64,000 bases of DNA from a virus (IMGVR_UViG_3300029705_000039), one strand, 5' to 3'. Shown: positions 42,787-63,739, counted from the first letter of the stretch. Notes: generated from the letters alone by a model not told the origin. Numbers and translations are program-made.

Positions 42787-42794
42787 TTGTGATT

Positions 42795-42854: not shown

Positions 42855-42861
42855 GTTTTAT

Positions 42862-42956
42862 GGTTGTGTACCCAAGCGGTTATAAGGGGACTGACTCGAA
42901 ATCAGTTAGGGCGGTTCATAGCCGCTGCGTGGGTTCAAATCCCACCGCAACCGCCA
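42862..42956 (+). tRNA. tRNA-Ser(CGA)
   Basis: Cloverleaf, ACTGA-CTCGAAA-TCAGT, long variable arm, CCA. Confidence 0.9.
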
Positions 42957-43266: not shown

Positions 43267-43295
43267 TTGACAAAAATAAAAAATCATTATATAAT
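43267..43295 (+). promoter_or_regulatory. sigmaA-type promoter for the Leu / ncRNA / suppressor tRNA unit
   Basis: TTGACA-17-TATAAT. Confidence 0.8.
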
Positions 43296-43328
43296 ATATT
43301 TATAAGGTTGAGGAAAACTCAACCATAT

Positions 43329-43415
43329 GCCCGGATGGCGGAATTGGCGAGACGCGCTCGACTCAAAATCGAGTACATTGATACACTGTGGGTTCAAATC
43401 CCACTCTGGGTACCA
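43329..43415 (+). tRNA. tRNA-Leu(CAA)
   Basis: CTCGA-CTCAAAA-TCGAG, CCA end. Confidence 0.9.
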
Positions 43416-43419
43416 TTTT

Positions 43420-43539
43420 TAGACGTTTACAGCAAATTTTGATAGTAATCAAAGTGTCGTTGGTTCGATCCCAACATTGCAAGCCAATAATTTTGCAGTT
43501 CGCCCAGTAGGTAGGGCATTTGACTAAAAAGAACGTCTA
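43420..43539 (+). ncRNA. CAGCAA ncRNA, copy 2, containing a circularly permuted tRNA-like domain
   Basis: TAGACGTT/AACGTCTA clamp; internal order T arm, acceptor stem closed by a loop, D arm. Confidence 0.7.
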
Positions 43540-43556
43540 GTTTTATATAATTAAAT

Positions 43557-43647
43557 TGGGGATTGGTGTAATGGCAGCACGGCGGACTCTAAATCCGTGA
43601 GCCCCCTGAAGGCGTAAGTCAGGGTTCAAATCCCTGGTCCCCAGCCA
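43557..43647 (+). tRNA. Amber suppressor tRNA (anticodon CTA) with Gln-type acceptor and long variable arm
   Basis: TGGGGAT/GTCCCCA-G-CCA; GCGGA-CTCTAAA-TCCGT with CTA at 43589-43591; 21-nt variable region. Confidence 0.9.
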
Positions 43648-43654
43648 TTATATT

Positions 43655-43717
43655 TAGACACAACCAGCAAGTTATTTGTATTGCTAATAGAGAATTGATA
43701 CGACTAAATTGTGTCTA
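43655..43717 (+). ncRNA. CAGCAA ncRNA, copy 3
   Basis: TAGACACAA-CCAGCAA...TTGTGTCTA. Confidence 0.6.
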
Positions 43718-43775
43718 GTTTAAGTAAAAATATAAGCGCCTATATGGCGCTTTCTTTGTATAAGGAGTGATTCCC

Positions 43776-44387
43776 ATGGCTGTTTAGGGTGAAAAAATTT
43801 CATATTCTGAATTATTAAATTGGTATGAAGTATTTAATAATCTTGCTACCAATTATAGTGAAAATGTTACCGCTTTATCAATTCCTGTTTCTGGTAAAAA
43901 GGCTGAGCCTTCAGATATTAATAACCTTCATGAAAAAATTAATCAATTTCGTTCTGATACTTATCTCGGCACAAAGGCAGAATGGTTCCCTATTGGAACT
44001 GATGTAAGTAAAAATGAATATATTCGCGCTATTGACCCTACTGCTATTCTTGGCGTAGTTTCTAATGCTACTTTAGTAAAATGTCGAAATGTAGCTACTA
44101 ATACTTGTGGCGTTCATGGCAGTGGTTCTTTAAGCCACGGCAGTAAAGGGAATGGTACGTGGGGCAATACACAAAAATCTTGTGGCACAAAGTCGCATGG
44201 AGACTGGCACAATGAAGGTAATACCGATGGATGGTATTCTAGTGGTAAGAAAACGAATGGATGGTGGAGCCATAGTACCCGCAGTTGCGGAGAGCATGGT
44301 TGCGGCACTAATAATCATGCCAGCAAAGGCAACACAACTGTAATTGATATTACCTGTGTCCATTCTACAAAAGTTAATCAAGCCTAA
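43776..44387 (+). CDS. 203-aa protein with 16 C-terminal pentapeptide repeats; candidate radical SAM substrate (code 15, TAG at codon 4)
   Basis: AAGGAG RBS, ATG GCT GTT TAG, open to TAA 44387; absent from the ORF track. Confidence 0.8.
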
Positions 44388-44395
44388 GGAGTATT

Positions 44396-45772
44396 ATGGA
44401 ACATCTTTATAAAAATCTTTCTACTGTAGTTTTTTATACTTGCGGCACCTGTAATCTTAAATGCCGTTATTGTGGTATTAATAAAAATCCAATATTAAAA
44501 GATATAGATAGTGCTCTTGCCAAAAGTTTTGAAGGAGATTATTACTTTCGACGAGTAAAAGATTATTTCCCCCGTAAAGATATGCTACTTAACTTTGAAA
44601 CTTGGGGCGGCGAACCTTTTCTCCATATGGAGCGTTTATATCCAGTTTTAAAAACTCTATTGGATTATTATCCTTACTTACAAAATGGTTATTCTTCTAC
44701 CAATTTTTCTTTTGAAAATTGGAATGAAAAATTTTTTGGTTTAATGGACTGTTTTGGACAATATCCAAATCGCTTATTTAAATATTGTCTACAGCTTTCA
44801 GTAGATGGCCCTGAATATATTAACGATGCTGGCCGCGGAACAGGTGTAACTAAAAAATGCTTGGCTAATTTTAATAAATTAGTAGCGCTTTTAGCGGCGG
44901 GCCGCCTACCTAAAAATGTAGACCTAACCATTACCCTAAAGGGAACTTTAGATAATGACACTATTAAACAACTTTGTCAAAAAGATAAGATTATAGAGTA
45001 TTTTCAATTTTATGAAAATAATTTTATAAATCCTATCAAACAACTAAATTTATCTAATGTTGATATCATTCCCACAATTCCTAATACTGCGGTCCCTTCT
45101 CCTGTTACTAAAGAAGATGGAAAAATCTTTGCTAAACTAGTTAAGCTTTGTCGCGAAATCGAAGAAGAGAATAAGACTTGTAATTATTTTAATTATTATA
45201 ATATAATTACACCTTATTATAGTAATATCTGCCAAAATTGTTTAACCTACAAATATGGTTGGCATACTTGCGGCACAGGAGATAGCGTTATCGGTTTATT
45301 ACCTGATAATATGGTTTCTACCTGCCATGAGGGTTTTACCCAAATTGTAGAAGAATATCAAAAATTAGCGGCACAAGATAAGAATCTTAATTCTACGATT
45401 ACTTTCGATAAATTTAGAGATGAACAAGCGATTAGTTTATGCGTCGATGACGAAGGATTTTATGAACATCACTATAAAATGTCTTTATATCAACACGATG
45501 ATGCCACAGCACGTGTCGCAACTAGTGCTAGTTTAATTGTAGCATTAGCTCTTGCCAAACAAATTGATGAATGCTATATTAATCAGACTAACGCTTTAAA
45601 GGCCGCGATTTTTATTCAAAGTCATACTTCTTATTGTATTAAAGACAACTACAATAAGACTGGTTCTTACACTCTACCGCCCGTAGGTTTATATAAATTA
45701 TTACTTAACGGTGCGATGGAATACATACAAGGAGAAGGAGAACTAAAAGTTAATGATGTTAGAAAAGACTAA
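44396..45772 (+). CDS. Radical SAM protein 1
   Basis: CNLKCRYC, WGGEP, LSVDG, downstream CGTG...TCH (SPASM/twitch-like). Confidence 0.9.
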   Translation: MEHLYKNLSTVVFYTCGTCNLKCRYCGINKNPILKDIDSALAKSFEGDYYFRRVKDYFPRKDMLLNFETWGGEPFLHMERLYPVLKTLLDYYPYLQNGYSSTNFSFENWNEKFFGLMDCFGQYPNRLFKYCLQLSVDGPEYINDAGRGTGVTKKCLANFNKLVALLAAGRLPKNVDLTITLKGTLDNDTIKQLCQKDKIIEYFQFYENNFINPIKQLNLSNVDIIPTIPNTAVPSPVTKEDGKIFAKLVKLCREIEEENKTCNYFNYYNIITPYYSNICQNCLTYKYGWHTCGTGDSVIGLLPDNMVSTCHEGFTQIVEEYQKLAAQDKNLNSTITFDKFRDEQAISLCVDDEGFYEHHYKMSLYQHDDATARVATSASLIVALALAKQIDECYINQTNALKAAIFIQSHTSYCIKDNYNKTGSYTLPPVGLYKLLLNGAMEYIQGEGELKVNDVRKD

Positions 45773-47165
45773 AAATATATTTCAAAAGGAGCAAGATGCT
45801 CTTTTACAAACTGTCTTGGGGCTAAGATTCTTAGACCCCTGGACAGATAAAGAATATGATGATTTCTCATTGGTAGCAGATGCTAACCTAGAAATCTTTA
45901 TTACTAGCGCTTGTAATCAAAAATGCGAATATTGCTATCTAATTAAACATAAAGATTTATATCCGCAAGAATTTCGAGATAAAAGTTTAATATTAGATAA
46001 TTTAAGAAAATTATATGATTGGATTTATGATAATAATTATCATATCCCTCTTTGTACTTTTTTCTCTGGTGAAATTTGGCATATCAATTTTGGTTTGGAA
46101 GTATTAGATATTACTTTAGAATATTTAAAGAAGGGAATTAATATCGATAGATTTATGATTCCTTCTAATTGTTCTTTTGTCTTAGATGAATCTCAACTAG
46201 AAAAAATTCAAACCTATATTGATCTATTTGATAAATATGGATATCCTCTACAATTTTCTATTTCAGTAGATGGCGCTATTTTAGAATCTGAAACGAGACC
46301 ATTAAATAATGGAATTGCCAAAACAGAAGATTATTATGATAGATTATTTCTATTTGCTAAACATAATAATTATTATTTTCATCCAATGGTCAGCGCCTTT
46401 AGCGTGGAAAAGTGGATAGAAAATTACAAATGGTGGGAAAAACAATTTAACAAATGGGATATGAATATTTCAGCCTTAATGATGTTAGAGGTTAGAAATG
46501 ATGATTGGACAGAAGAAAAAATCACCGCTTATACATCCTTTCTTAATTTTTTAATTGATAAATATTTTGAAGAAGAATGTGGAAAAAATGTAGAAGTGTT
46601 TTCTAATCGTCTAATGAATATTCGCAATTATATTCCACAAAAAATTCATCCTGCCGAATTAGCCGGTTATACTCCTTGGGCATTACCAGAAACTGACAGT
46701 TTTATTGGTTGTACCTGCGCTAATGAACTAACTGTACGGCTTGGCGATTTGGCAATTATACCTTGCCATAGATTGGGATATAATAAATATAAATATGGCA
46801 ACTTTACATTAAAAAATAATCATATTGACACAATTGAAGCAAATAATCCTCAAATGGCAGTTAAAATCTTAATGAGCAACTTTAATCTTGCTAGTTTTGG
46901 TTGCGATACTTGTTTATTTAATCATTATTGCCTTAAAGGGTGCTATGGTAGCCAATATGAAAATATGGGCGATCCATTTATTCCTGTTCCGAATATTTGT
47001 AACTTCTTTAAAAAGAAATATAGTTTTCTTTTACAAAAGTATAAGGATATGGGAGTATTTGATTATTACAAAACTATTGCACCGCAGGAATTAGAATATC
47101 CGCGTATTAAGAAATTATTAGACCTTTTTGAAGAGTGGGAGGTTTCGCCGCTATGCAATGGATAA
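45753..47165 (+). CDS. Radical SAM/SPASM protein 2
   Basis: CNQKCEYC, ISVDG, PCH...CDTC....YCLKGC.......IC. Confidence 0.9.
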   Translation: MMLEKTKNIFQKEQDALLQTVLGLRFLDPWTDKEYDDFSLVADANLEIFITSACNQKCEYCYLIKHKDLYPQEFRDKSLILDNLRKLYDWIYDNNYHIPLCTFFSGEIWHINFGLEVLDITLEYLKKGINIDRFMIPSNCSFVLDESQLEKIQTYIDLFDKYGYPLQFSISVDGAILESETRPLNNGIAKTEDYYDRLFLFAKHNNYYFHPMVSAFSVEKWIENYKWWEKQFNKWDMNISALMMLEVRNDDWTEEKITAYTSFLNFLIDKYFEEECGKNVEVFSNRLMNIRNYIPQKIHPAELAGYTPWALPETDSFIGCTCANELTVRLGDLAIIPCHRLGYNKYKYGNFTLKNNHIDTIEANNPQMAVKILMSNFNLASFGCDTCLFNHYCLKGCYGSQYENMGDPFIPVPNICNFFKKKYSFLLQKYKDMGVFDYYKTIAPQELEYPRIKKLLDLFEEWEVSPLCNG

Positions 47166-47497
47166 ACGGTATGAAAATGTTCCCTTATGGGCGAACTCCA
47201 GTACAAAATATTACTCTAGAACAATTAGAGAATGATAATATAGAAGAAATTAATATGTATCTCTTGAAAATGGCGCGCCAAATGATTATTTATTAGGAAT
47301 TAGTTAGTTGGAAAGCTGATGGAACTCGCTCTAATAAGTATGCTTACAATATTTTCCCTGATGATTTGCCTGATAATGTATCTTGTTTAAGTGCTTATGG
47401 TCAAAAGATGGTTAATGATTGGTATTCTAGAAATAAATACCATGGCGATAAAGGAGTAAAGCAGACAGATGTTGGATTTAATTATACCGGTATATAA
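47153..47497 (+). CDS. Small hypothetical protein in the radical SAM operon (code 15)
   Basis: GGGAGG RBS, one in-frame TAG, overlaps both neighbours. Confidence 0.65.
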
Positions 47498-48479
47498 TAA
47501 TTTGGAAGGGTTGTATAGAACTTTGTTATCTATTGGTGCGGAAACTAAGCAAAAAGTTTACGTGACTATTGTAGATGATGCCTCAGATATTAACTATGAT
47601 GAAGTGATTCCGCTATTCCAAAAACTTTTCCCTATTCGTATTCTAAAATTAAGTGAAAATATGGGTCCTGGTGTGGCAAGACAGCAAGGCATACGAGAGA
47701 CTAATAACCCATATTTTTCTTTTATTGATTGCGGCGATACATTTTATTCTCCTTTAATATTGCCTACGATGTTAGAAGCAATAGAAAAGCATCCTCAAGC
47801 AATGATGTTTTCTTGGGCTCATATAGAAGAGAATAGCGATGGAAGTTTGGATATGGTTAATTCTTATCATAATCGCATTCATGGTAAAATTTATAATAGG
47901 GAGTTTATAAATAAACATAATATTACTTTTTCTCAATTATCCCCGTATGCAAACGAAGACATCGGCTTTAATCTTGCGTGTCGTATGATATTAAAATCTT
48001 TATATCCTGAAACAGCATTGTATTCTAATGAAGATGCGGCAGTTGTATGGAAATGGAGCGGTCCTTCTATTGTTCGTGCGAATGACTGTGAATTCTATTA
48101 TAGAAAACAACATTTAGGATTGGCTTTGAACAGTTTACACGCGATTAATATAGCAAAAGAAAATAATGTATTAGAGCGTATAATTATAGAAGAAATATAT
48201 ACAACAATGATATATTTATATATGTTCTATTTACAAACTTTATATGTAAGGCCGCAATTTAAAGATGAGGCTTATATGGGTTGCAAATATTATTATTCAA
48301 AAATTTTTAGAGAATATGGGATAAAAAACCCATCTTTATTTAGAGATTATTACTATAAAGTGCTACTTTCTTTCCTCTCCGATGAAGATGACCCAATGCT
48401 ACAATCTCTTGTAAGTTTTGATGTTCTTAAATTCTTACAAGAATTGGAGGAAAATACGCATGAGGGACTTAAAAATTAA
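47469..48479 (+). CDS. Glycosyltransferase family 2
   Basis: LIIPVYN, VDDAS, GPGVARQ.G, FIDCGD, NEDIGF. Confidence 0.9.
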   Translation: MLDLIIPVYNNLEGLYRTLLSIGAETKQKVYVTIVDDASDINYDEVIPLFQKLFPIRILKLSENMGPGVARQQGIRETNNPYFSFIDCGDTFYSPLILPTMLEAIEKHPQAMMFSWAHIEENSDGSLDMVNSYHNRIHGKIYNREFINKHNITFSQLSPYANEDIGFNLACRMILKSLYPETALYSNEDAAVVWKWSGPSIVRANDCEFYYRKQHLGLALNSLHAINIAKENNVLERIIIEEIYTTMIYLYMFYLQTLYVRPQFKDEAYMGCKYYYSKIFREYGIKNPSLFRDYYYKVLLSFLSDEDDPMLQSLVSFDVLKFLQELEENTHEGLKN

Positions 48480-49221
48480 ATAGGGCTTTGTAACCTTATT
48501 ATCTTCTGAAAATTATATAGAAGCGGTTTTAATTCTGAATGCCAGCCTAAAAGCAGTGCAATCTAAATATCCCTTAATAGTTGCCTGTACTCCTTCTGTA
48601 ATAAAAAATGAACGCATTATTGCGGCTCTGCTAGCAGAAAATTGTATAGTAGAGCCAATAGCACCATTACGTTTTCCAGAAGGTTTAGAACATCTTCTAC
48701 AAAAAGATTATCCTAATTTGCCAAATCTTTTAAATACCGGCGCGAAATTAGAAGTATTTTCTTTGAAACATTATGATAAACTCGTCTTTATCGACGCAGA
48801 TGGATTTTTGGTAAAAAATATAGATTTTTTATTTAATAAAAAAGATGGCTCTTCTACTATTCAAAAAGACGAGCGCGATGAAATTAGTAGTAATTGTAGT
48901 GTTTTTGTTTTTTGCCCTCGTAATCATAATATAAATTTTTATCGAGGCCTAGTATTTAAAATGGGGCACAATGATGGCGCAGTTTTTGAAAGTATGTGGT
49001 TTTAGGTTAAAGACAATGAAGATTATAGAATAAAAGATAATATCTATTATCTTCCTTTTGATGAAAATATACATACTGAAGTCTATGGTTATCATTTATG
49101 GAAACCGCATTTAAAATATTGGTTATTAAAAGATATGCCTAATACAGATTTAGCTAATTTGTATAAAAACTTTTTAATACCAATTAGAGCCAAATATAAA
49201 TTTGACTTTTCTCAAAAATAA
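48460..49221 (+). CDS. Glycosyltransferase family 8 (glycogenin-like), code 15
   Basis: GFVTLL...Y...VLILNASL...SKYPL; KLEVF...YDKLVFIDAD; two TAG. Confidence 0.8.
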
Positions 49222-49259
49222 CTTTATAATATATGTAAGATGAAAGAAAGGAGTATTGT

Positions 49260-49511
49260 ATGAATAATCATATTCGTGCCCATATCCAATTAACTACCTT
49301 AGCCGATATTAACAATTTCGTAAATGAACTTAATAAAGATAATTTCACTAATTGTTATACTCTTGAAAATTTCGATGGCTCTCTACGTGTCAATGCACGC
49401 TCAATTCACGGTATAATTTATGCCGCGAGCGATTATAATGATGAAATGTTTTTAGTTAATGAAAGTAATGATGGTGCTTTCCCGTCAAGCATTGATAAAT
49501 ACAGAGTTTAA
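49260..49511 (+). CDS. HPr-like protein
   Basis: RVNARSIHGI resembles the HPr VNAKSIMG motif. Confidence 0.55.
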   Translation: MNNHIRAHIQLTTLADINNFVNELNKDNFTNCYTLENFDGSLRVNARSIHGIIYAASDYNDEMFLVNESNDGAFPSSIDKYRV

Positions 49512-49514
49512 AAT

Positions 49515-49543
49515 TTGACAATTTTAAAAAAATAGTATATAAT
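49515..49543 (+). promoter_or_regulatory. sigmaA-type promoter of the main tRNA array
   Basis: TTGACA-17-TATAAT. Confidence 0.8.
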
Positions 49544-49581
49544 ATTTATACAAGGTTGAGGGAGATAACTCCCTCAAATAT

Positions 49582-49657
49582 GGGTATATAGTCCAGTTGG
49601 TAGAACGGTAGACTGTTAATCTATATGTCGGGGGTTCGAGTCCCTCTATACCCGCCA
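49582..49657 (+). tRNA. tRNA-Asn(GTT)
   Basis: GTAGA-CTGTTAA-TCTAT, CCA. Confidence 0.9.
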
Positions 49658-49916
49658 CTTGTATCATCTAATGATACTAACCCTTAACACGGATTTTGAG
49701 AGTTTAAACTACCACCGGCCAGAACGACAAATGACGGATATGTGGCTAGCGGAAAAGGGTATATAAAGAAGCGAAGCAAAACTCTCAGCTGTACAGCGGG
49801 CTTGGCCCTTACCGATACAAGGCTCCTAATGCGGCTAAGTATGGGAAGAAGCGGACATTAGCGTTATGAGTGATGTGAAAATCACCATCATCCCGGGACG
49901 AGACGCCGGATCATTT

Positions 49917-49992
49917 GCCTGAGTCGAATAAAGGTAAGTTCGCGGGCCTTTCAAGCCCGTAATGTCGGGTTCGAGTCCCACCTCAGGTGCCA
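49917..49992 (+). tRNA. tRNA-Glu(TTC)
   Basis: CGGGC-CTTTCAA-GCCCG, CCA. Confidence 0.85.
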
Positions 49993-49998
49993 ATTTTA

Positions 49999-50062
49999 AG
50001 GCGGCCACAGCAATTTTTCAAGCATCTGTTATTGTAGAACTGATATAACTTGAAAGCCGCCT
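49999..50062 (+). ncRNA. CAGCAA ncRNA, copy 4
   Basis: AGGCGGC-C-ACAGCAA...TTTCAAG/CTTGAAA inner stem...GCCGCCT. Confidence 0.6.
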
Positions 50063-50071
50063 AGTTTTTAT

Positions 50072-50147
50072 GCCGAATTAGCTCAATTGGCAGAGCAATC
50101 GCCTTGTAAGCGATAGGTTAAGAGTTCAAGTCTCTTATTCGGCTCCA
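50072..50147 (+). tRNA. tRNA-Thr(TGT)
   Basis: ATCGC-CTTGTAA-GCGAT, CCA. Confidence 0.9.
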
Positions 50148-50263
50148 TCGTGCGTTGGAACGTAGCGATACGGTTTAGGCGAACCACCCATAAAATCGCT
50201 CACGCAGAAAGGGGTACAAGATGATTCCAACCGTCGAAAGAGACCGTTAGCCTTTCAACTTTT

Positions 50264-50378
50264 TAGGCACATACAGCAAAACAGTAGTCCAATTGGGCCG
50301 GTAGCTCAGATGGTAAGAGCATTAGATTGATAATCTGAAGGTCGTTGGTTCGAGTCCAACCTGTTAAATATGTGTCTA
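50264..50378 (+). ncRNA. CAGCAA ncRNA, copy 5, enclosing a tRNA-Ile(GAT)-like body without a 3' acceptor or CCA
   Basis: TAGGCACATA/TATGTGTCTA clamp; D arm, TTAGA-TTGATAA-TCTGA, T arm GTTGG-TTCGAGT-CCAAC. Confidence 0.7.
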
Positions 50379-50520
50379 GCAAAACATAACACTTGAGGTT
50401 ATGTTGAGTAATGAAATAATTCCCCGTCCCAAGCCGCGGTGAATTATGGAACTCTAAGGGGGTTTTAGTGTAGAACCACAACTTGGGTAGGCTTAAATGC
50501 CGAAGGAAAAACACTTTTAT

Positions 50521-50639
50521 GGAAACGTGGTGTAACGGTAGCACTTAAACAAGTCGGTATAGGCCGCGGACCGGTCAGCAATCTTTCTTTAGACGATTCT
50601 GCAAAAATTGAGGAGTTGGTTCGAATCCAACCGTTTCCA
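50521..50639 (+). ncRNA. tRNA-like RNA with the anticodon arm replaced by about 65 nt
   Basis: GGAAACG/CGTTTCC acceptor, D arm, T arm GTTGG-TTCGAAT-CCAAC; insert contains CAGCAA. Confidence 0.65.
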
Positions 50640-50658
50640 AATTAGCGGCATTCATTGT

Positions 50659-50733
50659 GTGGGTATCGTCCAGCGGATAGGGCATGGAGCTTCTACCTCC
50701 ATAACGTGGGTTCGATTCCTACTACCCATACCA
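50659..50733 (+). tRNA. tRNA-Arg(TCT)
   Basis: TGGAG-CTTCTAC-CTCCA, CCA. Confidence 0.85.
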
Positions 50734-50738
50734 TTCAT

Positions 50739-50814
50739 AGCAGAGTAGAGAAGAGGTCATCTCGCCATGTTCATAACTTGGAGATCGTAGGTTCGAATCC
50801 TACCCCTGCTCCCA
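50739..50814 (+). tRNA. tRNA-Met(CAT), atypical
   Basis: CCATG-TTCATAA-CTTGG; mismatches in two stems. Confidence 0.7.
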
Positions 50815-50818
50815 TTAT

Positions 50819-50894
50819 GCTTCCTTTGCCAAGATGGTAAGGCGGCGGATTGCAAATCCGTGATTCATTGGTTCGACTCCAATAGGAAGCTCCA
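50819..50894 (+). tRNA. tRNA-Cys(GCA)
   Basis: GCGGA-TTGCAAA-TCCGT, U73, CCA. Confidence 0.9.
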
Positions 50895-50898
50895 TTAT

Positions 50899-50974
50899 CT
50901 CCCGTTAGTCTAACTGGATAAAACATATGGCTACGGACCATAGTATGTGGGTTCAAGTCCTGCACGGGAGGCCA
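50899..50974 (+). tRNA. tRNA-Arg(ACG)
   Basis: TATGG-CTACGGA-CCATA, CCA. Confidence 0.9.
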
Positions 50975-50980
50975 ATATAT

Positions 50981-51056
50981 GCCTAGGAAGCTCATAAGGA
51001 TGAGCAGCGGACTCATATCCCGCAGGTAGTTAGTTCGAATCTAACGCTAGGCACCA
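50981..51056 (+). tRNA. tRNA with CAT anticodon (Met or Ile2)
   Basis: GCGGA-CTCATAT-CCCGC, CCA. Confidence 0.75.
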
Positions 51057-51280
51057 AAGGTTTTATGGAGTTCCTTAATAACCATATGACTTATTGCTTC
51101 AATAGGTAAGCAACGTTTTAGAGAAGGTATCATACAACTCCCCACTGAGTTCCGTGAAAACTCGAAGGTGCCGATGTATGCGTTGGGCTAACCCACATGT
51201 AAGTCTGTGGTTAGGGGATAGTCACCAAAAGACATGTAGGAATCAGCTGATGCCTGCGCTAGCAAAGAAGAAAGCTTTTT

Positions 51281-51372
51281 GGAGAGATACCCAAGTTGGT
51301 GAAGGGGCGAGTTTGCTAAACTTGTAGGTCAGCTTGCCTGGCGCGTGGGTTCGAGTCCCACTCTTTCCGCCA
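51281..51372 (+). tRNA. tRNA-Ser(GCT)
   Basis: CGAGT-TTGCTAA-ACTTG, long variable arm, CCA. Confidence 0.9.
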
Positions 51373-51820
51373 AAGGTTATTTCACCTTGTAATAAAAAGG
51401 AACGCAAAAATCACAATTGGGCGAAACGAAGTAGTGACGCTTCTAGCAGAAAGCGAACAAAGGGACTAATCAACCCATTCTGTAGTCGTAAAAGGTGCGG
51501 CCACACCTATTACGCAAATGCGACGGACAAGGCTTTGGCAGGTGAGACTTGTAATAACCAAAAAGGTCAACAGACTGGTGGGACGCGAGTGGTCGCAAAC
51601 TGTAGGGATTAAAAATCGAGCACTAAGCTGTAATAATGGGATACTTCATATGGGTAAAGTTATAGGCAATTCCCATAGCCTGACTTAGAGGTATGGAGTG
51701 CTGACTTTATGAGCGGTTGGGTCAGCAACCTACAGTTATAGTAAGTTGCAATTTACTAATAATTAACTCTTGAGCGGTACAAAGATTAGAGGCGGCCCAG
51801 CCTATACCGTAGGGCGTATA
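51373..51820 (+). ncRNA. Candidate large structured ncRNA (GOLLD/ROOL-like context)
   Basis: About 450 nt of GC-enriched non-coding sequence between tRNAs with several helices (e.g. AACTGTAGG/CCTACAGTT). Confidence 0.4.
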
Positions 51821-51821
51821 T

Positions 51822-51898
51822 AGTGCCGTAGAGAAGTTGGAGTTCTCGCCAGTCTGTCACACTGGAGATCGCGGGTCCGAGTCCCGTCGGCACTGCCA
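51822..51898 (+). tRNA. tRNA-Asp(GTC)
   Basis: CCAGT-CTGTCAC-ACTGG; T loop TCCGAGT. Confidence 0.9.
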
Positions 51899-51901
51899 TA
51901 T

Positions 51902-51977
51902 GATGTATTAGCTCAGAAGGTAGAGCGCTGGTCGTTAAGAGTTGAGGTCATAGGTTCAAGTCCTATATACATCACCA
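51902..51977 (+). ncRNA. tRNA-like RNA with a disrupted anticodon arm
   Basis: Perfect acceptor, D and T arms and CCA; anticodon stem CTGGT/AGTTG largely unpaired. Confidence 0.65.
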
Positions 51978-52048
51978 ATAGTATACGTCGGTTCAAACCC
52001 GGCACCGTCAATAGCTGGCGGTTAGTTTAAAAGGTAAAAACATACTAT
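51978..52048 (+). ncRNA. Second circularly permuted tRNA-like element
   Basis: ATAGTAT/ATACTAT closing stem; T arm GTCGG-TTCAAAC-CCGGC, then ACCGTCA-ATAGC-TGGCGGT, then a D arm with GG. Confidence 0.65.
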
Positions 52049-52088
52049 ACCAGTTCTTACTGCGGTATCCTACGGGGCCGCAGATTTT

Positions 52089-52164
52089 GCTCCAATACCT
52101 CAGTTGGTAGAGGGCGCGCTTGGTAAGTGCGATGTCGCCAGTCCGATTCTGGCTTGGAGCTCCA
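52089..52164 (+). tRNA. tRNA-Thr(GGT)
   Basis: CGCGC-TTGGTAA-GTGCG; T loop TCCGATT. Confidence 0.85.
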
Positions 52165-52309
52165 GGGGATTAAGCTAACCCTTCTAAAAACACGCGCTGT
52201 GGTAAATAGAGAAGTGAGACGCAAGGGTATCCGGCATAAGGTATCTCTAAGCCTGACCGGTAGAGTAGCGCCCGGAGAGTTTTTACGCCTGTTCTCTCCA
52301 ACTTAATAT

Positions 52310-52395
52310 GGGTAGATATACCGTAAGTGGTAGCGGGGCAGGCTGTAAACTTGCTGTCAATGACTCGGGTGGTTCGACTCCATCTCTGCCCACCA
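52310..52395 (+). tRNA. tRNA-Tyr(GTA)
   Basis: GCAGG-CTGTAAA-CTTGC, variable arm, CCA. Confidence 0.9.
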
Positions 52396-52423
52396 ATTTA
52401 AATAAAAGAAAGGAATTAATTTT

Positions 52424-52645
52424 ATGGAAAAGGAAACTAAGTTTGAAACCTATACTTTTACTCATTCTAATGAAAATGATGTTCTTACTTCCCTGAACTT
52501 CACTGTTCCCCCTGTAGGTGTAACTATTGAAACTTTCCTCTCTATGTGTCGCAAATTTGCCTATGCTCTTGGTTATGCTGAAAAGAGTATTGATGAATGG
52601 TTTGGCGAAGATGGAGACGAATCCTTTACAGAGTTTATGGAATGA
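52424..52645 (+). CDS. Small acidic hypothetical protein
   Basis: AAGGA RBS, 73 aa. Confidence 0.6.
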   Translation: MEKETKFETYTFTHSNENDVLTSLNFTVPPVGVTIETFLSMCRKFAYALGYAEKSIDEWFGEDGDESFTEFME

Positions 52646-52697
52646 CCGCGGCAAAGGAATATATATTCATTTTTATCATAATGGAGAGTGAATAAAT

Positions 52698-53252
52698 ATG
52701 TATTCGCAAGCATTGTCCGCGGGATGTATGTTAGGCTTTGCCGCTCTTCTTTCTTGCTGTGTTGAGAATCAAATTTTAGCGGCGTTATTCTTTTCAATAG
52801 GACTTTTGTATATACGAATAAGTAAATTTTATCTATATACAGGCCAAATTCAAAATCTAAAAGACCATTCTACTTCTTTAAAAGAATTAGGAATTGGCTT
52901 ATTTGGCAATATTAGCGGCGTTACGCTTTTCTTCTCTTTATTTTTCTTCCTTGATTTTCACGCGGCCGCAGATAAATATTTTGCTATTACTGCTGTAAAA
53001 TGGTCTTATCCTTGGTATCATTATATTGCTTCTAGTATGTGTTGCGGTATTTTGATGACAATTGCAACAAAAAAAGAAAGTCCTTTATGGTTAAGTAGTT
53101 TATGTGTAATGGCTTTTATTCTTGCTGGTTTTAATCATTGTGTTGCTGATTGGTTCTATGTTTTCGGAAGCATGAGCCCGTTAAAATATTTCTATTGGTC
53201 TTTAACTGTTATTGGTAATTTTCTTGGTGGTTATTTGGCCGCAACCAAATAA
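52698..53252 (+). CDS. Formate/nitrite transporter-family protein (short)
   Basis: FSIGL...LYTG...GN...FILAGFNHCVAD...GNFLGG. Confidence 0.75.
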   Translation: MYSQALSAGCMLGFAALLSCCVENQILAALFFSIGLLYIRISKFYLYTGQIQNLKDHSTSLKELGIGLFGNISGVTLFFSLFFFLDFHAAADKYFAITAVKWSYPWYHYIASSMCCGILMTIATKKESPLWLSSLCVMAFILAGFNHCVADWFYVFGSMSPLKYFYWSLTVIGNFLGGYLAATK

Positions 53253-53261
53253 CCCTTACTT

Positions 53262-53818
53262 CGGGGTGTAGCGCAGTTTGGCTAGCGCATTCGCTTTGGG
53301 AAAAGAGATTTTTGCTGATATAAAATGTTAGATAATACTCAACAAAAAGGAACTATTACTGAATTACACTGTATCTTAGATTTAACTAATTTGGGTTATC
53401 GGTGTTTAAAACCAGTAGATGAAAGTTCTAAATATGATATAGTTGTCGATTTAGGGCAAGGAAAATTTAAACGCATACAATGTAAAACTGCTTCTTGGGC
53501 TAATGATACAAAACAAGAGCATGTTGCGTTTCAAATTAATACTTGCAGTCAAACCACTAATACAAAAACGACTACTCGTCATAAATATTCTAAAGATGAT
53601 ATTGATTATTTTTACACTTGGTTTGAAGGTCAAGGATATTTAGTCTCCATTGAAGAAGCAACGGGAATTGGCTTTAGATGGCGGTATGAATATCCTGAAA
53701 CGAATCAGAAACAGGGAATTCATATCGCTAGTGAATATAAAATTGAGGAGGTTTTAAAGGCAATCTAAGATTTTCCTGGAGCGAAGGGTCGTGAGTTCAA
53801 ATCTCACCTCCCCGACCA
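53262..53818 (+). tRNA. tRNA-Pro(TGG) split by a 479-nt insertion (exons about 53262-53301 and 53781-53818)
   Basis: 5' half CGGGGTG...TTCGC-TTTGGGA and 3' half GCGAA-GGGTC-GTGAG-TTCAAAT-CTCAC-CTCCCCG-ACCA reconstitute a cloverleaf. Confidence 0.85.
53325..53768 (+). CDS. PD-(D/E)XK endonuclease of the group I intron-associated (I-Ssp6803I-like) type, inside tRNA-Pro
   Basis: KGTITE...YDIVVD...RIQCKT...YSKDDIDYF. Confidence 0.8.
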   Translation: MLDNTQQKGTITELHCILDLTNLGYRCLKPVDESSKYDIVVDLGQGKFKRIQCKTASWANDTKQEHVAFQINTCSQTTNTKTTTRHKYSKDDIDYFYTWFEGQGYLVSIEEATGIGFRWRYEYPETNQKQGIHIASEYKIEEVLKAI

Positions 53819-53826
53819 ATTAAAAT

Positions 53827-53855
53827 TTGACATTTTTCAAATTTTATAATATAAT
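53827..53855 (+). promoter_or_regulatory. sigmaA-type promoter
   Basis: TTGACA-17-TATAAT. Confidence 0.75.
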
Positions 53856-53949
53856 ATATACATAAGGTAAGGAACTTAATCAAATGCTCTCACCTCACGC
53901 TACACGCACCTCCTTGGGCTTTGTTCTATTACTTCCTTACCTTTTATGA

Positions 53950-54026
53950 TGCGGAGTGGAGCAGTTGGTAGCTCGTTAGCCCCATAAGCTAAAGGTCGCA
54001 GGTTCGAGTCCTGCCTCTCGCACCCA
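53950..54026 (+). tRNA. Initiator-like tRNA-Met(CAT), atypical (C33, acceptor bulge)
   Basis: fMet-like D arm; TTAGC-CCCATAA-GCTAA. Confidence 0.7.
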
Positions 54027-54030
54027 ATAA

Positions 54031-54700
54031 TAATTACAACAAAAAGGTATGCTTAGAAGCAGCAATCCTCTAAGGAGTAGGTCAAGCACCATAAGTGCAA
54101 ATAAAGTAGTGTAATGTCGGGCTGAATCACAGTGGCATATGGCTATGAAGTGCTTGTGGGAAAATGTGAGTAATCTTTTGGCGTAATAGCACATTTGTTG
54201 TAATTGCCTATCTACTAGCGTAGAAAAGGTTCCTGGATACGTCTAGGCGTATCCTATATGGAAAGGTTAAGGTCGCTACTTGACCTTTCCACTCACCGAC
54301 TTGCGGACGTAATCCGCTAAGGAAGAAACCGACTTTAGAAGATAAGTAGACGCGCAGGATGGCCACCATGGAGAGTGCGAGGTTCAAGTCCTCGGCGGTT
54401 AAATATACTTTATCTTTGGTTAGTCCTCAGCCAGGCGTTTGCGGAAACGTCGTGACAAACATAGATTATGGCAAAATGGCAAAAGGAATCCGCATTCTTA
54501 GTAGCCTATGGTGGGAAGAGGATGCCCCACTTTAGACGGAAATAGCTACCCGTCGGAGCCGCGTGTGCAGGATTCGCGGCGAATAAAATAAATAAATCGC
54601 TGTATGCGGCGAAGGCCGTTGAAGCACCTGTTAGCTAAAGGTGGTCTTTCGAAAGTCTATCGTAGAATAAATTTCTACGCGGTGCGGAGATAGCCGTATA
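54031..54700 (+). ncRNA. Hairpin-rich non-coding region; candidate structured RNA(s)
   Basis: AATTACAACAAA/TTTGTTGTAATT long-range stem, many local hairpins, isolated T-loop CGAGG-TTCAAGT-CCTCG. Confidence 0.4.
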
Positions 54701-54714
54701 AACTCCTTTTATAT

Positions 54715-54788
54715 GGGGTCATGATGTAATGGTAACATAATTGCCCTGCAAGCAATTTTTCGGGATTCGAATTCCCGTGGCTCCACCA
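54715..54788 (+). tRNA. tRNA-Ala(TGC)
   Basis: G3:U70; ATTGC-CCTGCAA-GCAAT. Confidence 0.85.
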
Positions 54789-55135
54789 TTTAAAATTAAT
54801 GAAAGGAAGTACAATAATATGACCAATGAAACCAAGGTTGCTCTTCTCACCGCTCGAAAGAATCTTCTTAATGACCGCAATCCCGCGGAAAATATTCATA
54901 TTATTCATAAAATTGAAAGGCTGATTAGAAAATATTCTAAGGAGTGATTTCAATGGAAAAATTATGGAAATGGTTAAGAGCGCATTTTTGTATTCACGAT
55001 TATGTACATCAAGAAACTCATACCATTCGTAATTTTAAAACTCAACCTCCCTATTTTCTGGCAACCTATAAATGCTCTAAGTGCGGCAAAGTAATTAGCA
55101 AATATATTGGTTAAGCGGCTTTGCCGCCGTTTTAT

Positions 55136-55291
55136 AGCCGAGTAGCCAAGTGGAAAGGCACGGGACTTCGTAAAGTAGTGTAATTGGTAGCAATGTTTCC
55201 GGTTAGCGCGCAGGGGACGGTGTTGGTTCGAATCCAACCTTTACGGCCATGACTCCCGCATTCGCTGGTTCGAGCCCAGCCTCGGCTGCCA
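55136..55291 (+). tRNA. tRNA-Gln(TTG) split in its anticodon by a nested tRNA-like element (exons 55136-55168 and 55250-55291)
   Basis: Joining CGGGA-CTT | TGAC-TCCCG gives a normal cloverleaf with AGCCGAG/CTCGGCT-G-CCA. Confidence 0.85.
55169..55249 (+). ncRNA. Nested 81-nt tRNA-like element ending in CCA
   Basis: CGTAAAG/CTTTACG-G-CCA, D arm, T arm GTTGG-TTCGAAT-CCAAC, non-canonical anticodon arm (7-bp stem, 12-nt loop). Confidence 0.8.
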
Positions 55292-55542
55292 AAGGGATAA
55301 CAATGCCCTTGTATGAAAACTTTCTTGCCCCAGTTTGTATAGATGCGGGATAATTCCTTCGTCTTAGTTTTGGACAAGAATCGTGCAAACCTTATAGAAC
55401 TGTAGGTTTATATGGAGGTCCGCGGCTTCCTAATTTAGAACAGTTCTTTTAGATTTGGTGCTTACCAAACTAAACCTATCGAGGACGTGTGAGGCGGGAA
55501 TGTTTGAGCCTGATTAAGTTCAGGGTGTAGATAGGTTTTTAT

Positions 55543-55618
55543 GCGAGGTTAGCTCAGTTGGGAGAGCACCTGCCCTACAAGCAGGGTGTCGGCGGTTCGA
55601 GCCCGTCACTTCGCACCA
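55543..55618 (+). tRNA. tRNA-Val(TAC)
   Basis: CCTGC-CCTACAA-GCAGG, CCA. Confidence 0.85.
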
Positions 55619-55622
55619 TTAT

Positions 55623-55707
55623 GGGGAGTTGGTGGAATTGGCAGACACGCTAGACTCAGGATCTAGTGCCGCAAAGCATAAGGGTTCAAGTCCCTTACTC
55701 CCTACCA
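55623..55707 (+). tRNA. tRNA-Leu(CAG)
   Basis: CTAGA-CTCAGGA-TCTAG, CCA. Confidence 0.9.
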
Positions 55708-55713
55708 TTTTAA

Positions 55714-55791
55714 CGGGCATTAGTTCAGTAGGTTTAGAACGCAGTCCTGATAAGACTGAGGTCCCTGGTTCAAATCCATCATCCCCTGCCA
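55714..55791 (+). tRNA. tRNA-Ile(GAT), degenerate acceptor and T stems
   Basis: CAGTC-CTGATAA-GACTG; several mismatches in the acceptor and T stems. Confidence 0.6.
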
Positions 55792-55795
55792 ACTT

Positions 55796-55869
55796 GCCGG
55801 CGTAGCTTAATGGCAAAGCTCCTGCCTTCCAAGCAGGCTACGTGGGTTCGATTCCCATCGCTGGCTCCA
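55796..55869 (+). tRNA. tRNA-Gly(TCC)
   Basis: CCTGC-CTTCCAA-GCAGG, CCA. Confidence 0.9.
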
Positions 55870-55870
55870 T

Positions 55871-55944
55871 GCAGGTATAGTATAGTGGTAATACCCCTCC
55901 TTGCCAAGGAGGTATCGCGGATTCGAATTCCGCTACTTGCTCCA
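55871..55944 (+). tRNA. tRNA-Gly(GCC)
   Basis: CCTCC-TTGCCAA-GGAGG, CCA. Confidence 0.9.
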
Positions 55945-56031
55945 TTTTGTGAAATTCAAGCCTGTCGACCCTACTGGGCGGACCGTAACAGCCGGTTTAA
56001 TTTTTTAATTTAATACTTAAGGAGTGATTCT

Positions 56032-56331
56032 ATGTACGAGAATGGACGAAAAGTTTCCCGTTATCACCGTATGCGCGAGCACAAACGCCGCCTAAAGGAC
56101 CGCTTCTTAAAGAACTCCTGGCGGCACAAGGGATTATCCTATGAAGAATATTTAGCAAATCTTACTGAAGAAGAACTAAATTATCGTTCAGGCGGGAATA
56201 TGATGCCTTGTTGCCTCCAATACTGGACACATTATTATGGCGGGGAACAGGAGAAAATTGCTAAACGGCAAACCTCTCGTGCTATTCGCAATTACTGGCG
56301 AAAGGAACTTAATAATTGGGAAGAACTTTAA
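56032..56331 (+). CDS. Basic hypothetical protein
   Basis: AAGGAG RBS, 99 aa. Confidence 0.6.
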   Translation: MYENGRKVSRYHRMREHKRRLKDRFLKNSWRHKGLSYEEYLANLTEEELNYRSGGNMMPCCLQYWTHYYGGEQEKIAKRQTSRAIRNYWRKELNNWEEL

Positions 56332-56421
56332 TGCTAGTATAAATATTAAAAATATGTTGTTTGGTAAAATTTTAGCGGATAGAGGAATCTATCCGCTTAT
56401 TTTTATAGGTAGGTGAAAAAG

Positions 56422-58284
56422 ATGGTTCCATATTCATAGAATATTTATGGGTATCCCTATAGTGTTATTTTAAAAGGCAGCGACATTCAAGCCCAATCAG
56501 GTCAACTTTTAAATAATTCTGAATCTGGGATACTAGAAAATTATAATATAAGTAGATTTCAAAGAATAATTGATGGCGTGATTTCTAAGCTATAGCGAAT
56601 TATTAATAATTAGCGAAATATTTATGAAGAAATTTAGGGAATGAAAAATGGCAAGGGAGCATAGCTACTTAATGATATTTTACATAATAGAAATATTACT
56701 GTAGATGAAAATGGCAATATTAAAGGAATTGCACAAACTTATGAAGAAATGTTTACTGAAGATATAAAAAAGAGAAAAGCGACATTAAAAGAGATGAATG
56801 ATTATAAAGTTCAATATAATCAAGTTATAGAATATATAAATACAGCCTTAAAAAAAGTCAATGTAAACAACTTAAATCCATCTACTTTATAGGACGTTAT
56901 TTCTAAAATAAAAATTAACAATGATAAACAAAGAGGTATCCAAAAATAGATGCTAACCTTATTTGAAGATGAAAATAATGCGAATAGTTTTAGTAAATTA
57001 TTCATGAAATCCGGAACATTATCTAATGATAATCTACGCAAACAATATGCTACATTAATTAAAGATTATAATAACGTTCGTGAGGATTATAAGCGTATTG
57101 CAAAGGATGAGTTGCCGCAAAAAATAGGAAAAGACCTAAATACAAATTTGCAAAAGTTATCTAAAGATTTAGCAGAAGTCTATGACGTAGAATCTGATGA
57201 ATTACGAGAAGCCCTAATAGATTATTTACAGGCGAATATTGATTCATCAGCTGAATTATCAAGTCCCTAGAATTTTACTTTTACAGTTCCAAGAAAAGCA
57301 AAAGGTTTCGAGGCCGTTGAATATACAGCCTCCTTAAGTGTTCCTATTTTAACGCATAATGATTTAGAAAATATTGTTATTTCTGCTATACAAACTGGTG
57401 CTGTTACTGACCGTGTATCTTCGCAAATAAGATGCGAGGTTAAATTTAAAGATCAAGAAGCTTTAACTCGAATTTCAAGAGAAAGATATGATCAAATAAT
57501 TCAAGGTACTTTAAAATTAGAGAAAGAAATTGATTATTTGGCCCTTGATACAGTAACTACTCATGTATCTAATAAAATAGACGATATTATTACTATAATG
57601 AATGAAGACCCTAAAAATGGAAATAAAAAATATAATTTAAAATTTTCAGACAAATTAATCTTTAATGAAACGTATAATGGAGCGGGCGGTCTAGCTAATG
57701 TTAAAATGGAAGGCGGCACTTTATATTCATTAATTAATTTATTACAGGGCGATAATTTAGGTAAGTTAGGCAAAAACCCAAATAATGACAATTTTGAAGA
57801 ATTAATTTTTACCATCCTCAATATGTCTTCTGTATCTAAATTAGCAGGAGATTTAAATAAAATTGAAGTTGATAATTTTATTAAAGCTTTATTAATTTCT
57901 GAAATCTATACTTTAGCATTTAATCCAGAAAGTTTTATTGTAGATTTAGAAACATTAGATGAACGTAATTTATATTTCCATCATATAGATACAATGATTC
58001 TACCTTCTTATAACTTATTACAAAAAACAATAAATTAGTTAGAAGAAATTAAAGAAACCTTACTGACTTCAGAAGGAGCGTAGAATAATTATATAAAAGC
58101 ATCAATTACTCCTAGCACTTCTTATACGGCCTCGTAGTTATATACTCAATATGTTAAGACTCCTAATTTTTAGAACGATCCAGCAGGACAATGGAAAATT
58201 GTGGCAGATTTAATTGCTTCCGACACCGCTATTTCTGTAATGTTGGATATACCAGCTATTTTAGGTTCAGTCGCGGGAAAATAA
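56422..58284 (+). CDS. 620-aa hypothetical protein (code 15, 12 TAG)
   Basis: AGGTG RBS; single frame with only TAG interruptions until TAA 58284. Confidence 0.8.
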
Positions 58285-62950: not shown

Positions 62951-63739
62951 ATGGGATTAATTTATATGCTAACCAGCCCCAGTGGAAGATCTTATATTGG
63001 ATAGACAAAGCGACCCTTTACTATACGATGGAATCAGCATAAAAGAGAGGCGGAAACTGGAAATGATACTCCTCTTTATAAAGCCATACGAAAATATGGC
63101 GCCGATTCTTTTTAGCATACAATATTAATAGAAACAGATAATGACAAATTAAATGAGTTAGAATAGTATTATATTAAATAGTATAATACGTATAATAATG
63201 GTTATAATTGCACTATCGGTGGCGAAGGAAATTGCAAAATTTCTGATGAGACTATTATTCAACTTTGGGAGAGTGGGTTGTGCTCAGCAGATATAGCACG
63301 GCAATTAAATGTATAGGGACATACTATTGAAAATAGAATTAAAAGTCTTTATTCTGATGCTGAAATATAGGAACGTCGATACGCTTCAATTGGGAAAAAA
63401 CTTCAATTAAAAGATAATAATATAAAAACTCTATGGGATTAGGGCTATAGTGTTACTTAGATTTCGGATATATTATCCTATGATAGACATACAGTAAGCC
63501 GTGTTTTATAGAGACTGGGAATTACTCCTGAACAGTTAGAATATTCTAGAAAGGCCCACAGCGGTGATAAGAAAAATTCTCCCATAATACAATATGATAA
63601 AAATGGTAATTTTATATAGGAATGGTTTTCAATTAGTGAAGCGGCGAGACAATTAAATATTCACGCTGGTAATATTTGCAAAGTTCTAAAAAAAGAAAGA
63701 AAAACTACTGGTGGTTATATATTTAAATATAAGGAGTAA
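62951..63739 (+). CDS. Free-standing GIY-YIG homing endonuclease with HTH/NUMOD1 domains (code 15)
   Basis: GLIY...SYIG(TAG)T = YIGQT; NGYNCTIGG; many TAG. Confidence 0.85.

Follow-up and report, generated by a model that had tools for sequence, protein, structure and literature searches.

How can a transfer RNA (tRNA) gene give rise to its product when a second, complete tRNA shape is lodged inside its anticodon? The question is raised by positions 55136-55291 of a 64,000-nucleotide (nt) stretch of phage DNA (IMGVR_UViG_3300029705_000039; the whole stretch is referred to below as the window), in which a tRNA-Gln(UUG) gene is split between U34 and U35 by an 81-nt tRNA-shaped insert. From sequence comparisons we favour, with a probability of about 0.55, the reading that the insert is a mobile, ribozyme-free intron which would be removed by RNase P, a cut after its CCA and an RNA ligase.

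Anatomy of the interrupted tRNA-Gln gene

Deletion of exactly 55169-55249 joins 55136-55168 to 55250-55291 and results in a 75-nt tRNA-Gln(ttg) in the ARAGORN analysis, the split bond lying between U34 and U35, inside the UUG anticodon. The joined exons are approximately 87% identical to the uninterrupted tRNA-Gln(TTG) gene of Phass-1, a phage from the code-15 clade, with compensation wherever the stems differ. When the locus is left undeleted, ARAGORN reports just a CCA-ended 81-nt “tRNA-???” at 55169-55249. This insert scored 36.0 bits against the Rfam tRNA model (gathering score 29), the weakest among the 23 tRNA matches of the window.

All parts of the locus lie on the plus strand. The 5' exon (55136-55168) comprises the 5' strand of the acceptor stem, the D arm, the 5' strand of the anticodon stem and positions 32-34, with the wobble base U34 as its last base; it was delimited by ARAGORN on the joined sequence, by homology to uninterrupted tRNA-Gln genes and by the retention of all pairs in four relatives. 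The 3' exon (55250-55291) holds positions 35-76, that is U35 and G36, the 3' strand of the anticodon stem, the T arm, the 3' strand of the acceptor stem, G73 and the CCA. Between them, the insert (55169-55249) extends from its own acceptor base 1 to its own CCA. The 5' strand of its acceptor stem (55169-55175, CGTAAAG) pairs with 55239-55245, with seven of seven pairs present in all five relatives. It is followed by a D arm (55178-55193) with a 3-bp stem and a loop containing GG, found likewise in the insert of contig L026, by an “anticodon” arm (55195-55218) with a 6-bp stem, a 12-nt loop and no usable anticodon, and by a T arm (55222-55238) with a 5-bp stem and the canonical 7-nt T loop, an 18-mer of which is identical to 50615-50632. 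The 3' end (55239-55249) consists of the acceptor 3' strand (55239-55245), discriminator G at 55246 and CCA at 55247-55249, and the 3' junction comes immediately after. Thus three claims of an earlier annotation made from this DNA alone (the sequence-only reading) held: that exact removal of the insert restores a tRNA-Gln cut at 34/35, that the insert runs from the first base of its acceptor stem to its CCA, and that it has D and T arms and no usable anticodon.

A T precedes the insert at position -1 and another T directly follows its CCA, resembling the junctions between neighbouring tRNAs in the arrays of the window, where the CCA is encoded in all 24 tRNA genes, T occupies position -1 in 21 of the 24 and the packed genes are separated by spacers of 1-6 nt. 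Because the end bases of the insert differ from the adjoining exon bases, the placement of the insert has no sliding ambiguity. The intron mode of ARAGORN shifts the cut by 1 nt and calls the gene Arg(TCG); this was ruled out by the homology to Phass-1 and by uninterrupted orthologues that read through the same anticodon loop. An insert working as an elongator tRNA was likewise ruled out by the 6-bp stem and 12-nt loop of its “anticodon” arm and by the unconserved loops of its orthologues. At minimum energy the 156-nt unit folds into a cloverleaf nested in a cloverleaf, the anticodon stem and a 7-bp helix flanking a 3-by-8-nt internal loop that contains the splice junctions. The thermodynamic z-scores obtained for these structures were not significant, as is usual for tRNAs, and were given no weight in either direction. 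A scan of every 81-nt deletion across 42000-56500 was uninformative and was not used, since ARAGORN also calls chimeras of adjacent tandem tRNAs.

That the locus is an assembly artefact or a chimera has, in our judgement, a negligible probability. When metagenomes are assembled from short reads, tRNA arrays may become collapsed or wrongly joined, and one contig (L006) starts at 55292; against this, two independent assemblies of the Joint Genome Institute (JGI) from other samples (L004 and L005) are 100% identical through the locus, and orthologous nested loci occur in scaffolds of the European Nucleotide Archive (ENA), SPAdes and MEGAHIT contigs, Logan contigs and IMG/VR genomes, which stem from other samples, groups and assemblers. 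An exact 25-mer of the insert had no match in IMG/VR, a metagenome scan with the 3' end of the outer tRNA returned just one unrelated contig end, and searches of GenBank phages with the Gln and Ile units found no homologue that is nested. The contig L006 (JGI Ga0216341_10025936, 8.5 kb, another sample) starts at the first base past the tRNA-Gln CCA, which could be chance, a break in the assembly graph or, if the sample was RNA, a processing site.

Conservation of the nested locus in related phages

Related loci were collected as syntenic contigs found via the small proteins neighbouring the locus, and three whole IMG/VR genomes were found via the RNA ligase described below. The insert occupies the same tRNA-Gln bond in L010 (a 171-kb contig, identity of the surrounding DNA about 74%), L023 with L024, its independent counterpart from Logan (about 69%), L026, and G003 (also L052), a complete 181-kb IMG/VR genome. 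In a four-way alignment (A8) the 35 pairs of both cloverleaves amount to 140 cells, all of which are standard pairs and none of which is broken. Eleven pairs are changed on both sides and none on one side only; the compensatory pairs fall in the outer acceptor stem (4), the outer anticodon stem (1), the outer T stem (3), the inner acceptor stem (2) and the inner T stem (1). As a control, partners were slid by 1-3 columns, and pairing fell to 29-46%. A third compensatory pair of the insert acceptor stem is found in G003.

The Gln inserts are 81, 77, 77, 78 and 91 nt long and their interiors are unrelated. The “anticodon” arm of the insert is always paired in the relatives, as 5-6-bp stems of unrelated sequence with loops of 7-12 nt, and the insert of L023 has C in place of U33. 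What is constant across the compared copies are both junctions, the acceptor end and the CCA, and the T and D arms are mostly kept. A processing signal, in contrast to a decoder, would be expected to show this combination of conserved junctions, acceptor end and CCA with a drifting anticodon arm. The comparison supports the view that the insert is a maintained, intron-like element rather than a dead scar.

Empty sites and spread of the insert

Both forms of the gene that the sequence-only reading suggested looking for in related phages were found, since besides the nested loci named above the tRNA-Gln genes of L020, L025 and L019 are empty at this site. L020, the closest relative found, has an uninterrupted tRNA-Gln at the same site; its identity to the window is about 95% in the 967 nt upstream and about 90% downstream, and the alignment of L020 with the window breaks exactly at 55168/55244. 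The D arm of tRNA-Gln is identical in the window and L020. The nested alleles have in common the anticodon-stem block CGGGA/UCCCG, which in L026 is compensated to A-U at one pair, while the empty alleles of the lineage share the block UGCGG/CCGCA. About 12 exon nt per side thus travel with the insert, a sign of co-conversion such as is left by intron homing or by spread through recombination, and the insert has probably spread between phages by one of these ways together with this flanking exon sequence.

Other tRNAs carry inserts of this type as well. Exact deletion of the ARAGORN-called inner tRNAs in all fetched loci restored the outer tRNA in six cases, namely Gln in the window, L010, L023 and L024, Val(UAC) in L010 and Ile(GAU) in L017; the same deletion test on L026 restored Gln. 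The tRNA-Val of L010 has exons identical to the uninterrupted Val of L020, which fixes its 75-nt insert at 34/35, again from its own base 1 to CCA; the tRNA-Val of the window (55543-55618) is an empty site. The Ile insert, 72 nt long and located at 35/36 with a one-base ambiguity, is present in L010, L016, L017, L018 and L023 with 98.6-100% identity, and tRNA-Ile is empty in the window, L008, L019 and L020. The inner elements reached Rfam tRNA scores of 34.8-43 bits, low yet above the threshold. Intron mode of ARAGORN miscalls the outer genes as Pro, Met and Arg and places the cut 1-2 bases off. On the reading preferred here, the intron is one of a family located within the anticodons of tRNA-Gln, tRNA-Val and tRNA-Ile in phages of approximately 170-180 kb which read TAG as Gln and bear an RNA ligase.

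A further nested tRNA was observed at 54589-54732 of the IMG/VR genome G001 (IMGVR_UViG_3300022661_000062), where ARAGORN in intron mode calls His(GTG) with a 71-nt intron; an alternative cut from inner base 1 to CCA gives the outer anticodon GTT (Asn), split at 35/36.

A possible splicing route and the phage RNA ligase

If the insert is an intron, it would act as a processing handle that is treated by RNase P as one more tRNA. It carries features of an RNase P substrate, that is stacked acceptor and T helices of 7 + 5 bp, a 3' GCCA and U at position -1. A cut by RNase P on the 5' side of insert base 1 would leave the 5' exon ending in U34 with a 3'-OH, and a hydrolytic endonuclease cutting right after the insert CCA would leave a 5'-phosphate on U35 of the 3' exon, the halves being held together by the outer acceptor and anticodon stems (7 + 5 bp). 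An ATP-dependent RNA ligase, likely the phage enzyme encoded at 19906-21381, would then reseal the anticodon loop. The product would be a tRNA for CAA, the commonest Gln codon of the phage (83 CAA, 44 CAG and 23 TAG codons in 11 open reading frames (ORFs)); a second tRNA-Gln was sought in the window and in the complete genome G003 and was found in neither. After cleavage by RNase P, the tRNA begins with a 5'-phosphate and the leader ends in a 3'-OH. Ligases of the Rnl type seal 3'-OH/5'-phosphate breaks, and Rnl1 of phage T4 does so in anticodon loops. The ends predicted here are those sealed by an ATP-dependent ligase, and the proposed chemistry is therefore coherent. As to the second cut, the RNase Z of Thermotoga cleaves precisely after an encoded CCA.

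The sequence-only reading had named the gene at 19906 as an RNA ligase, and the assignment is well founded. The candidate exon sealer (19906-21381, plus strand) matches PHROG 968 with an E value of 1.3e-67 and has an N-terminal OB fold and a nucleotidyltransferase (RNA_ligase) domain. It scored 43 bits against the DRB0094-type model of NCBIfam, which is below the cutoff, and the Pfam PHA02142 OB and RNA_ligase matches are weak in the window ligase and at threshold in its homologues; a sequence search against PDB gave no match. It is by these predicted domains a ligase of the Deinococcus DraRnl type, with N-terminal OB fold, and not of the T4 Rnl1 type. Among the best 120 homologues listed, identity is 73-94% and several are on 120-200-kb contigs, whereas for the proteins beside the tRNA locus identity in comparable relatives is just 46-67%. 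Such conservation fits an indispensable role of the ligase, without proving a role in splicing.

Taken as a whole, this would be a third route of tRNA splicing in bacteria and their phages, in which a tRNA-mimicking mobile intron is excised by RNase P and a nuclease at the CCA and the exons are sealed by a phage ligase, with neither a ribozyme nor a splicing endonuclease. We advance this broader claim tentatively, at somewhat less than even odds.

Other inserts in tRNA genes of the same phages

The same phages carry inserts of other kinds. The tRNA-Pro gene of the window (53262-53818) carries in its anticodon loop an insert of about 477 nt, nearly all of which is a PD-(D/E)XK ORF (53325-53768; PDDEXK_5, I-Ssp6803I-type); the insert has no match to an Rfam intron and no room for a group I core. 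ORF-bearing inserts of 430-480 nt, with a PD-(D/E)XK or another ORF and too short for a ribozyme, occur in the window, L008 (4753-5290), L017 (1188-1696), L019 (264-814, 2069-2597 and 2825-3332), L028 (1072-1599), L029 (430-1175) and G002. In addition, the window contains at 50520-50640 a free-standing tRNA-like element without CCA, adjoining a drum RNA (50406-50519). Its 18-nt T arm (50615-50632) is identical to that of the Gln insert and its D arm is similar, and at the place of the anticodon loop it has a 31-nt hairpin ending in CAGCAA. Hairpin inserts with the CAGCAA motif interrupt three tRNA-like genes of G001 (57079-57193, 57198-57325 and 56966-57071).

Alternative explanations

Two established modes of splicing were rejected for the insert. 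Group I self-splicing does not agree with a length of 81 nt (the core usually exceeds 200 nt), nor was any Rfam intron family matched at the locus. The archaeal-type bulge-helix-bulge is not formed, as the fold places the junctions within a 3-by-8-nt internal loop instead of in two 3-nt bulges around a 4-bp helix.

Several points weigh against removal by RNase P, a cut after the CCA and ligation. No general bacterial enzyme is known to cut exactly after an encoded CCA; 3' ends are usually made by cutting downstream and trimming back in the 3'-to-5' direction, which here would degrade the 3' exon. Once RNase P has cut, the 5' exon would be open to exonucleases at its single-stranded 3' end. The 91-nt insert of G003 keeps a 7-bp terminal stem, a stacked hairpin and ACCA, and it has lost the canonical T arm; the Rfam tRNA model finds no tRNA in it. 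The covariation comes from only four or five sequences. Furthermore, the identical exon blocks and near-identical Ile inserts indicate recent spread, so part of the conservation and variation of the outer tRNA may predate insertion and not reflect later selection. Finally, the hairpin-CAGCAA and ORF-bearing inserts are not tRNA-shaped and would need another splicing activity, which could act on tRNA-Gln too. For this last reason a dedicated phage-encoded system is kept as the main rival, in which an endonuclease would read the junction helix formed by the paired ends of the insert beside the anticodon stem; such a system might leave cyclic-phosphate/5'-OH ends, to be healed by a phage phosphoesterase and a kinase and then ligated. 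It would accommodate the inserts that RNase P could not define (hairpin-CAGCAA in G001 and at 50520-50640; ORF-bearing as at 53262-53818) and the G003 insert with its paired ends and ACCA, and phosphoesterases, a Thg1-like enzyme, a nucleotidyltransferase and a Ro-like protein are encoded in the window beside the ligase. We nevertheless regard it as unlikely: a candidate splicing endonuclease was not identified, bulge-helix-bulge geometry is lacking, and a reader of the junction helix needs neither a terminal CCA nor a discriminator, nor the D and T arms and the GG of the D loop that most copies retain.

The remaining explanations dispense with splicing. A selfish mobile element might simply inactivate the tRNA gene, the loss being covered by the tRNA-Gln of the host, which would agree with the patchy distribution, with the lack of the insert in the closest relative L020 and with the recent spread of exon blocks and Ile inserts across diverged phages. 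In a gene without function, decay should be no slower than in the anticodon arm of the insert itself, yet in strongly diverged Gln inserts the 35 pairs, the exact bond and a restorable 7-nt anticodon loop are intact in all copies; moreover, the complete genome G003 has no other tRNA-Gln, and an exact start at base 1 and an exact end at CCA would be worthless to a DNA parasite. We thus hold inactivation to be improbable, and a similarly low likelihood is given to processing without religation, by which a CCA-ended tRNA-like RNA and/or tRNA-Gln halves would be released, as a decoy for tRNA-targeting defences or as a regulator. Anticodon nucleases of the zymocin γ-toxin and colicin E5 types are known to cut U34-modified tRNAs at 34/35. 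A decoy would suit this target site, the heavy investment of the phage in RNA repair genes and the paralogous free-standing element with the same T arm at 50520-50640, but the loop of the insert, the part needed against anticodon nucleases, is not conserved, and the perfect restored anticodon loops of Gln, Val and Ile are explained by religation alone. The sequence-only reading had itself offered a scar as an alternative, and conservation speaks against it. As a functionless relic, a mature tRNA-like RNA would have been ligated into a tRNA-Gln broken at 34/35 and then copied into DNA; this accounts together for the mature-tRNA ends including CCA and for the bond cut by anticodon nucleases, and an RNA ligase is present. 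It requires reverse transcription and integration, for neither of which evidence was found, and the occurrence of inserts in three different host tRNAs, together with compensatory changes among at least five diverged Gln copies, suggests that selection has maintained them for a long time, which makes this explanation very improbable for the element as it is now; it may describe the origin of the family. Hence, a maintained intron that is processed as a tRNA and religated remains the reading that we prefer.

The phage and its genomic setting

The window, part of a large phage genome, has a G+C content of approximately 36%; its genes all lie on the same strand and include 24 ordinary tRNA genes. 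TAG is read through: the ORF 56413-58284 is open only with 12 TAG codons decoded, and the GIY-YIG gene (62951-63739) only if 10 TAG codons are decoded. The phage thus reassigns a stop codon and, as predicted from its sequence, uses code 15 with TAG read as Gln. A 91-nt suppressor tRNA(CUA) at 43557-43647, labelled Pyl by ARAGORN, has a Gln-type acceptor stem, G73 and a long variable arm and fits this recoding. The neighbourhood of the nested gene contains two homing-endonuclease genes, PDDEXK_5 at 53325-53768 and the GIY-YIG gene mentioned above.

A cluster of RNA-repair-type genes extends over 13679-28425 of the window. Besides the ligase it encodes a Ro/TROVE-like protein (16265-17614), an RlaP-like nucleotidyltransferase (22430-23491), a Thg1-like 3'-5' polymerase (25229-26074) and two metallophosphoesterases (13679-14428 and 27622-28425). 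From a T4-type repair set, the ligase and metallophosphoesterases are present in the window and no kinase domain was identified there.

Small structured RNAs are densely packed in the tRNA regions of the window phage and its relatives. Rfam detected a partial tRNA (model positions 5-66) at 50299-50363 that was missed by ARAGORN, and two “skipping-rope” RNAs in the relative L010 (524-605 and 3320-3395). A terminator-like element (55115-55135), a GC-rich 5-bp hairpin with a T run, lies a few bases before tRNA-Gln base 1 and is kept in relatives. Directly 3' of tRNA-Gln, the non-coding stretch 55292-55500 is 80-90% conserved in L020, L025, L019 and L010, whether or not they bear the insert; it has no Rfam match and may be a structured RNA of unknown kind. 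For a 623-aa protein encoded near the tRNA-Gln locus, no relatives were found in IMG/VR and GenBank phages.

Implications

If the proposed route holds, the supply of phage tRNA-Gln, tRNA-Val and tRNA-Ile would depend on a phage enzyme, and tRNA splicing would be built wholly from housekeeping end-processing and an RNA repair ligase. Phage RNA ligases would thereby have a constitutive job beyond the repair of anticodon-nuclease damage, which would explain the far higher conservation of the ligase than of neighbouring proteins in this phage group. The insert would represent a new kind of mobile genetic element, the sole “gene” of which is an RNA shape, and would bear on the origin of split and intron-bearing tRNAs. 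The way nested genes are annotated also matters, as tRNA finders miscall them as an unknown tRNA or, in intron mode, as Arg, Pro, Met or His. Consequently, tRNA inventories and codon-use inferences of recoded phages remain wrong as long as the inserts have not been taken out at the correct bond.

Comparison with known systems

The class to which the insert belongs is already known but unexplained, and the tRNA-Gln case is a clean, well-documented member. In Lak megaphages, “enigmatic introns” in tRNAs were described by Devoto et al. 2019 (PMC6784885, Fig. 4, Table S6); the authors noted that an intron of Lak tRNA-Thr possibly contains a tRNA of its own, and that it is absent in part of the genomes and identical or nearly identical where present (PMC6784885). 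A 2026 survey of jumbo phages (PMC13037316) contains a single sentence to the effect that the introns in tRNAs of 262 alternatively coded jumbo phages “could encode another tRNA”. From the intron reading of the earlier annotation the maintained intron-like element stands, given the conserved bond, the covariation and the empty alleles, while the novelty it implied was overstated in view of the Lak tRNA introns of 2019. A full-text literature search for a mechanism of tRNA-shaped phage tRNA introns, proposed or tested, found no paper.

The inserts described here and those of Lak phages alike occur in phages that read TAG as Gln, are short, ribozyme-free and near the anticodon, and differ in presence between relatives. 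However, the Lak inserts as printed in Table S6 have a 5' hairpin and a spacer before the tRNA-like part and no terminal CCA, Lak tRNA genes do not encode CCA, and the inserts are placed after the anticodon by tRNAscan, whereas the insert in tRNA-Gln is a bare tRNA shape from base 1 to CCA that splits the anticodon at 34/35. No mechanism was proposed for the Lak introns. The survey (PMC13037316) ties the same phenomenon to alternative codes and gives no anatomy, boundaries, covariation or mechanism; its jumbo phages also differ from the present group, which at about 170-180 kb is below the jumbo threshold.

Among introns with an established mode of removal, group I introns occur in the anticodon loops of bacterial, plastid and phage tRNAs, some with homing endonucleases such as I-Ssp6803I of the PD-(D/E)XK family. 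Those of tRNAs such as tRNA-Leu(UAA) resemble the insert in the bond 34/35, patchy distribution, co-conversion of flanking exons and a neighbourhood rich in homing endonucleases; in contrast to them, the 81-nt insert has no group I core and cannot self-splice. With archaeal and eukaryal tRNA introns and with split or permuted tRNAs it would share protein-dependent removal and ligation of halves held by the tRNA stems. Those systems rely on a bulge-helix-bulge, the EndA endonuclease, the ligases RtcB or Trl1 and cyclic phosphate/5'-OH ends, while the present system is of phage and bacteria, lacks the bulge-helix-bulge and has predicted 3'-OH/5'-phosphate ends.

The proposed sealing step resembles the repair of phage T4, where tRNA cut by PrrC is healed by Pnkp and sealed by Rnl1: there, too, a phage ligase reseals a break in the anticodon loop with the tRNA body holding the ends. 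T4 repairs damaged host tRNA at 33/34, whereas here the break would be programmed maturation of the phage's own tRNA, and Rnl1 contrasts with the DraRnl-like ligase with N-terminal OB fold. A tRNA shape that serves RNase P and RNase Z solely as a cutting signal, without a part in decoding, is found in mitochondrial tRNA punctuation, MALAT1 mascRNA and plant tRNA-snoRNA units; these handles separate neighbouring RNAs, none is located inside another tRNA and none needs its flanks rejoined. By analogy with these systems, the insert would work most like tRNA punctuation combined with anticodon-loop ligation of the T4 style.

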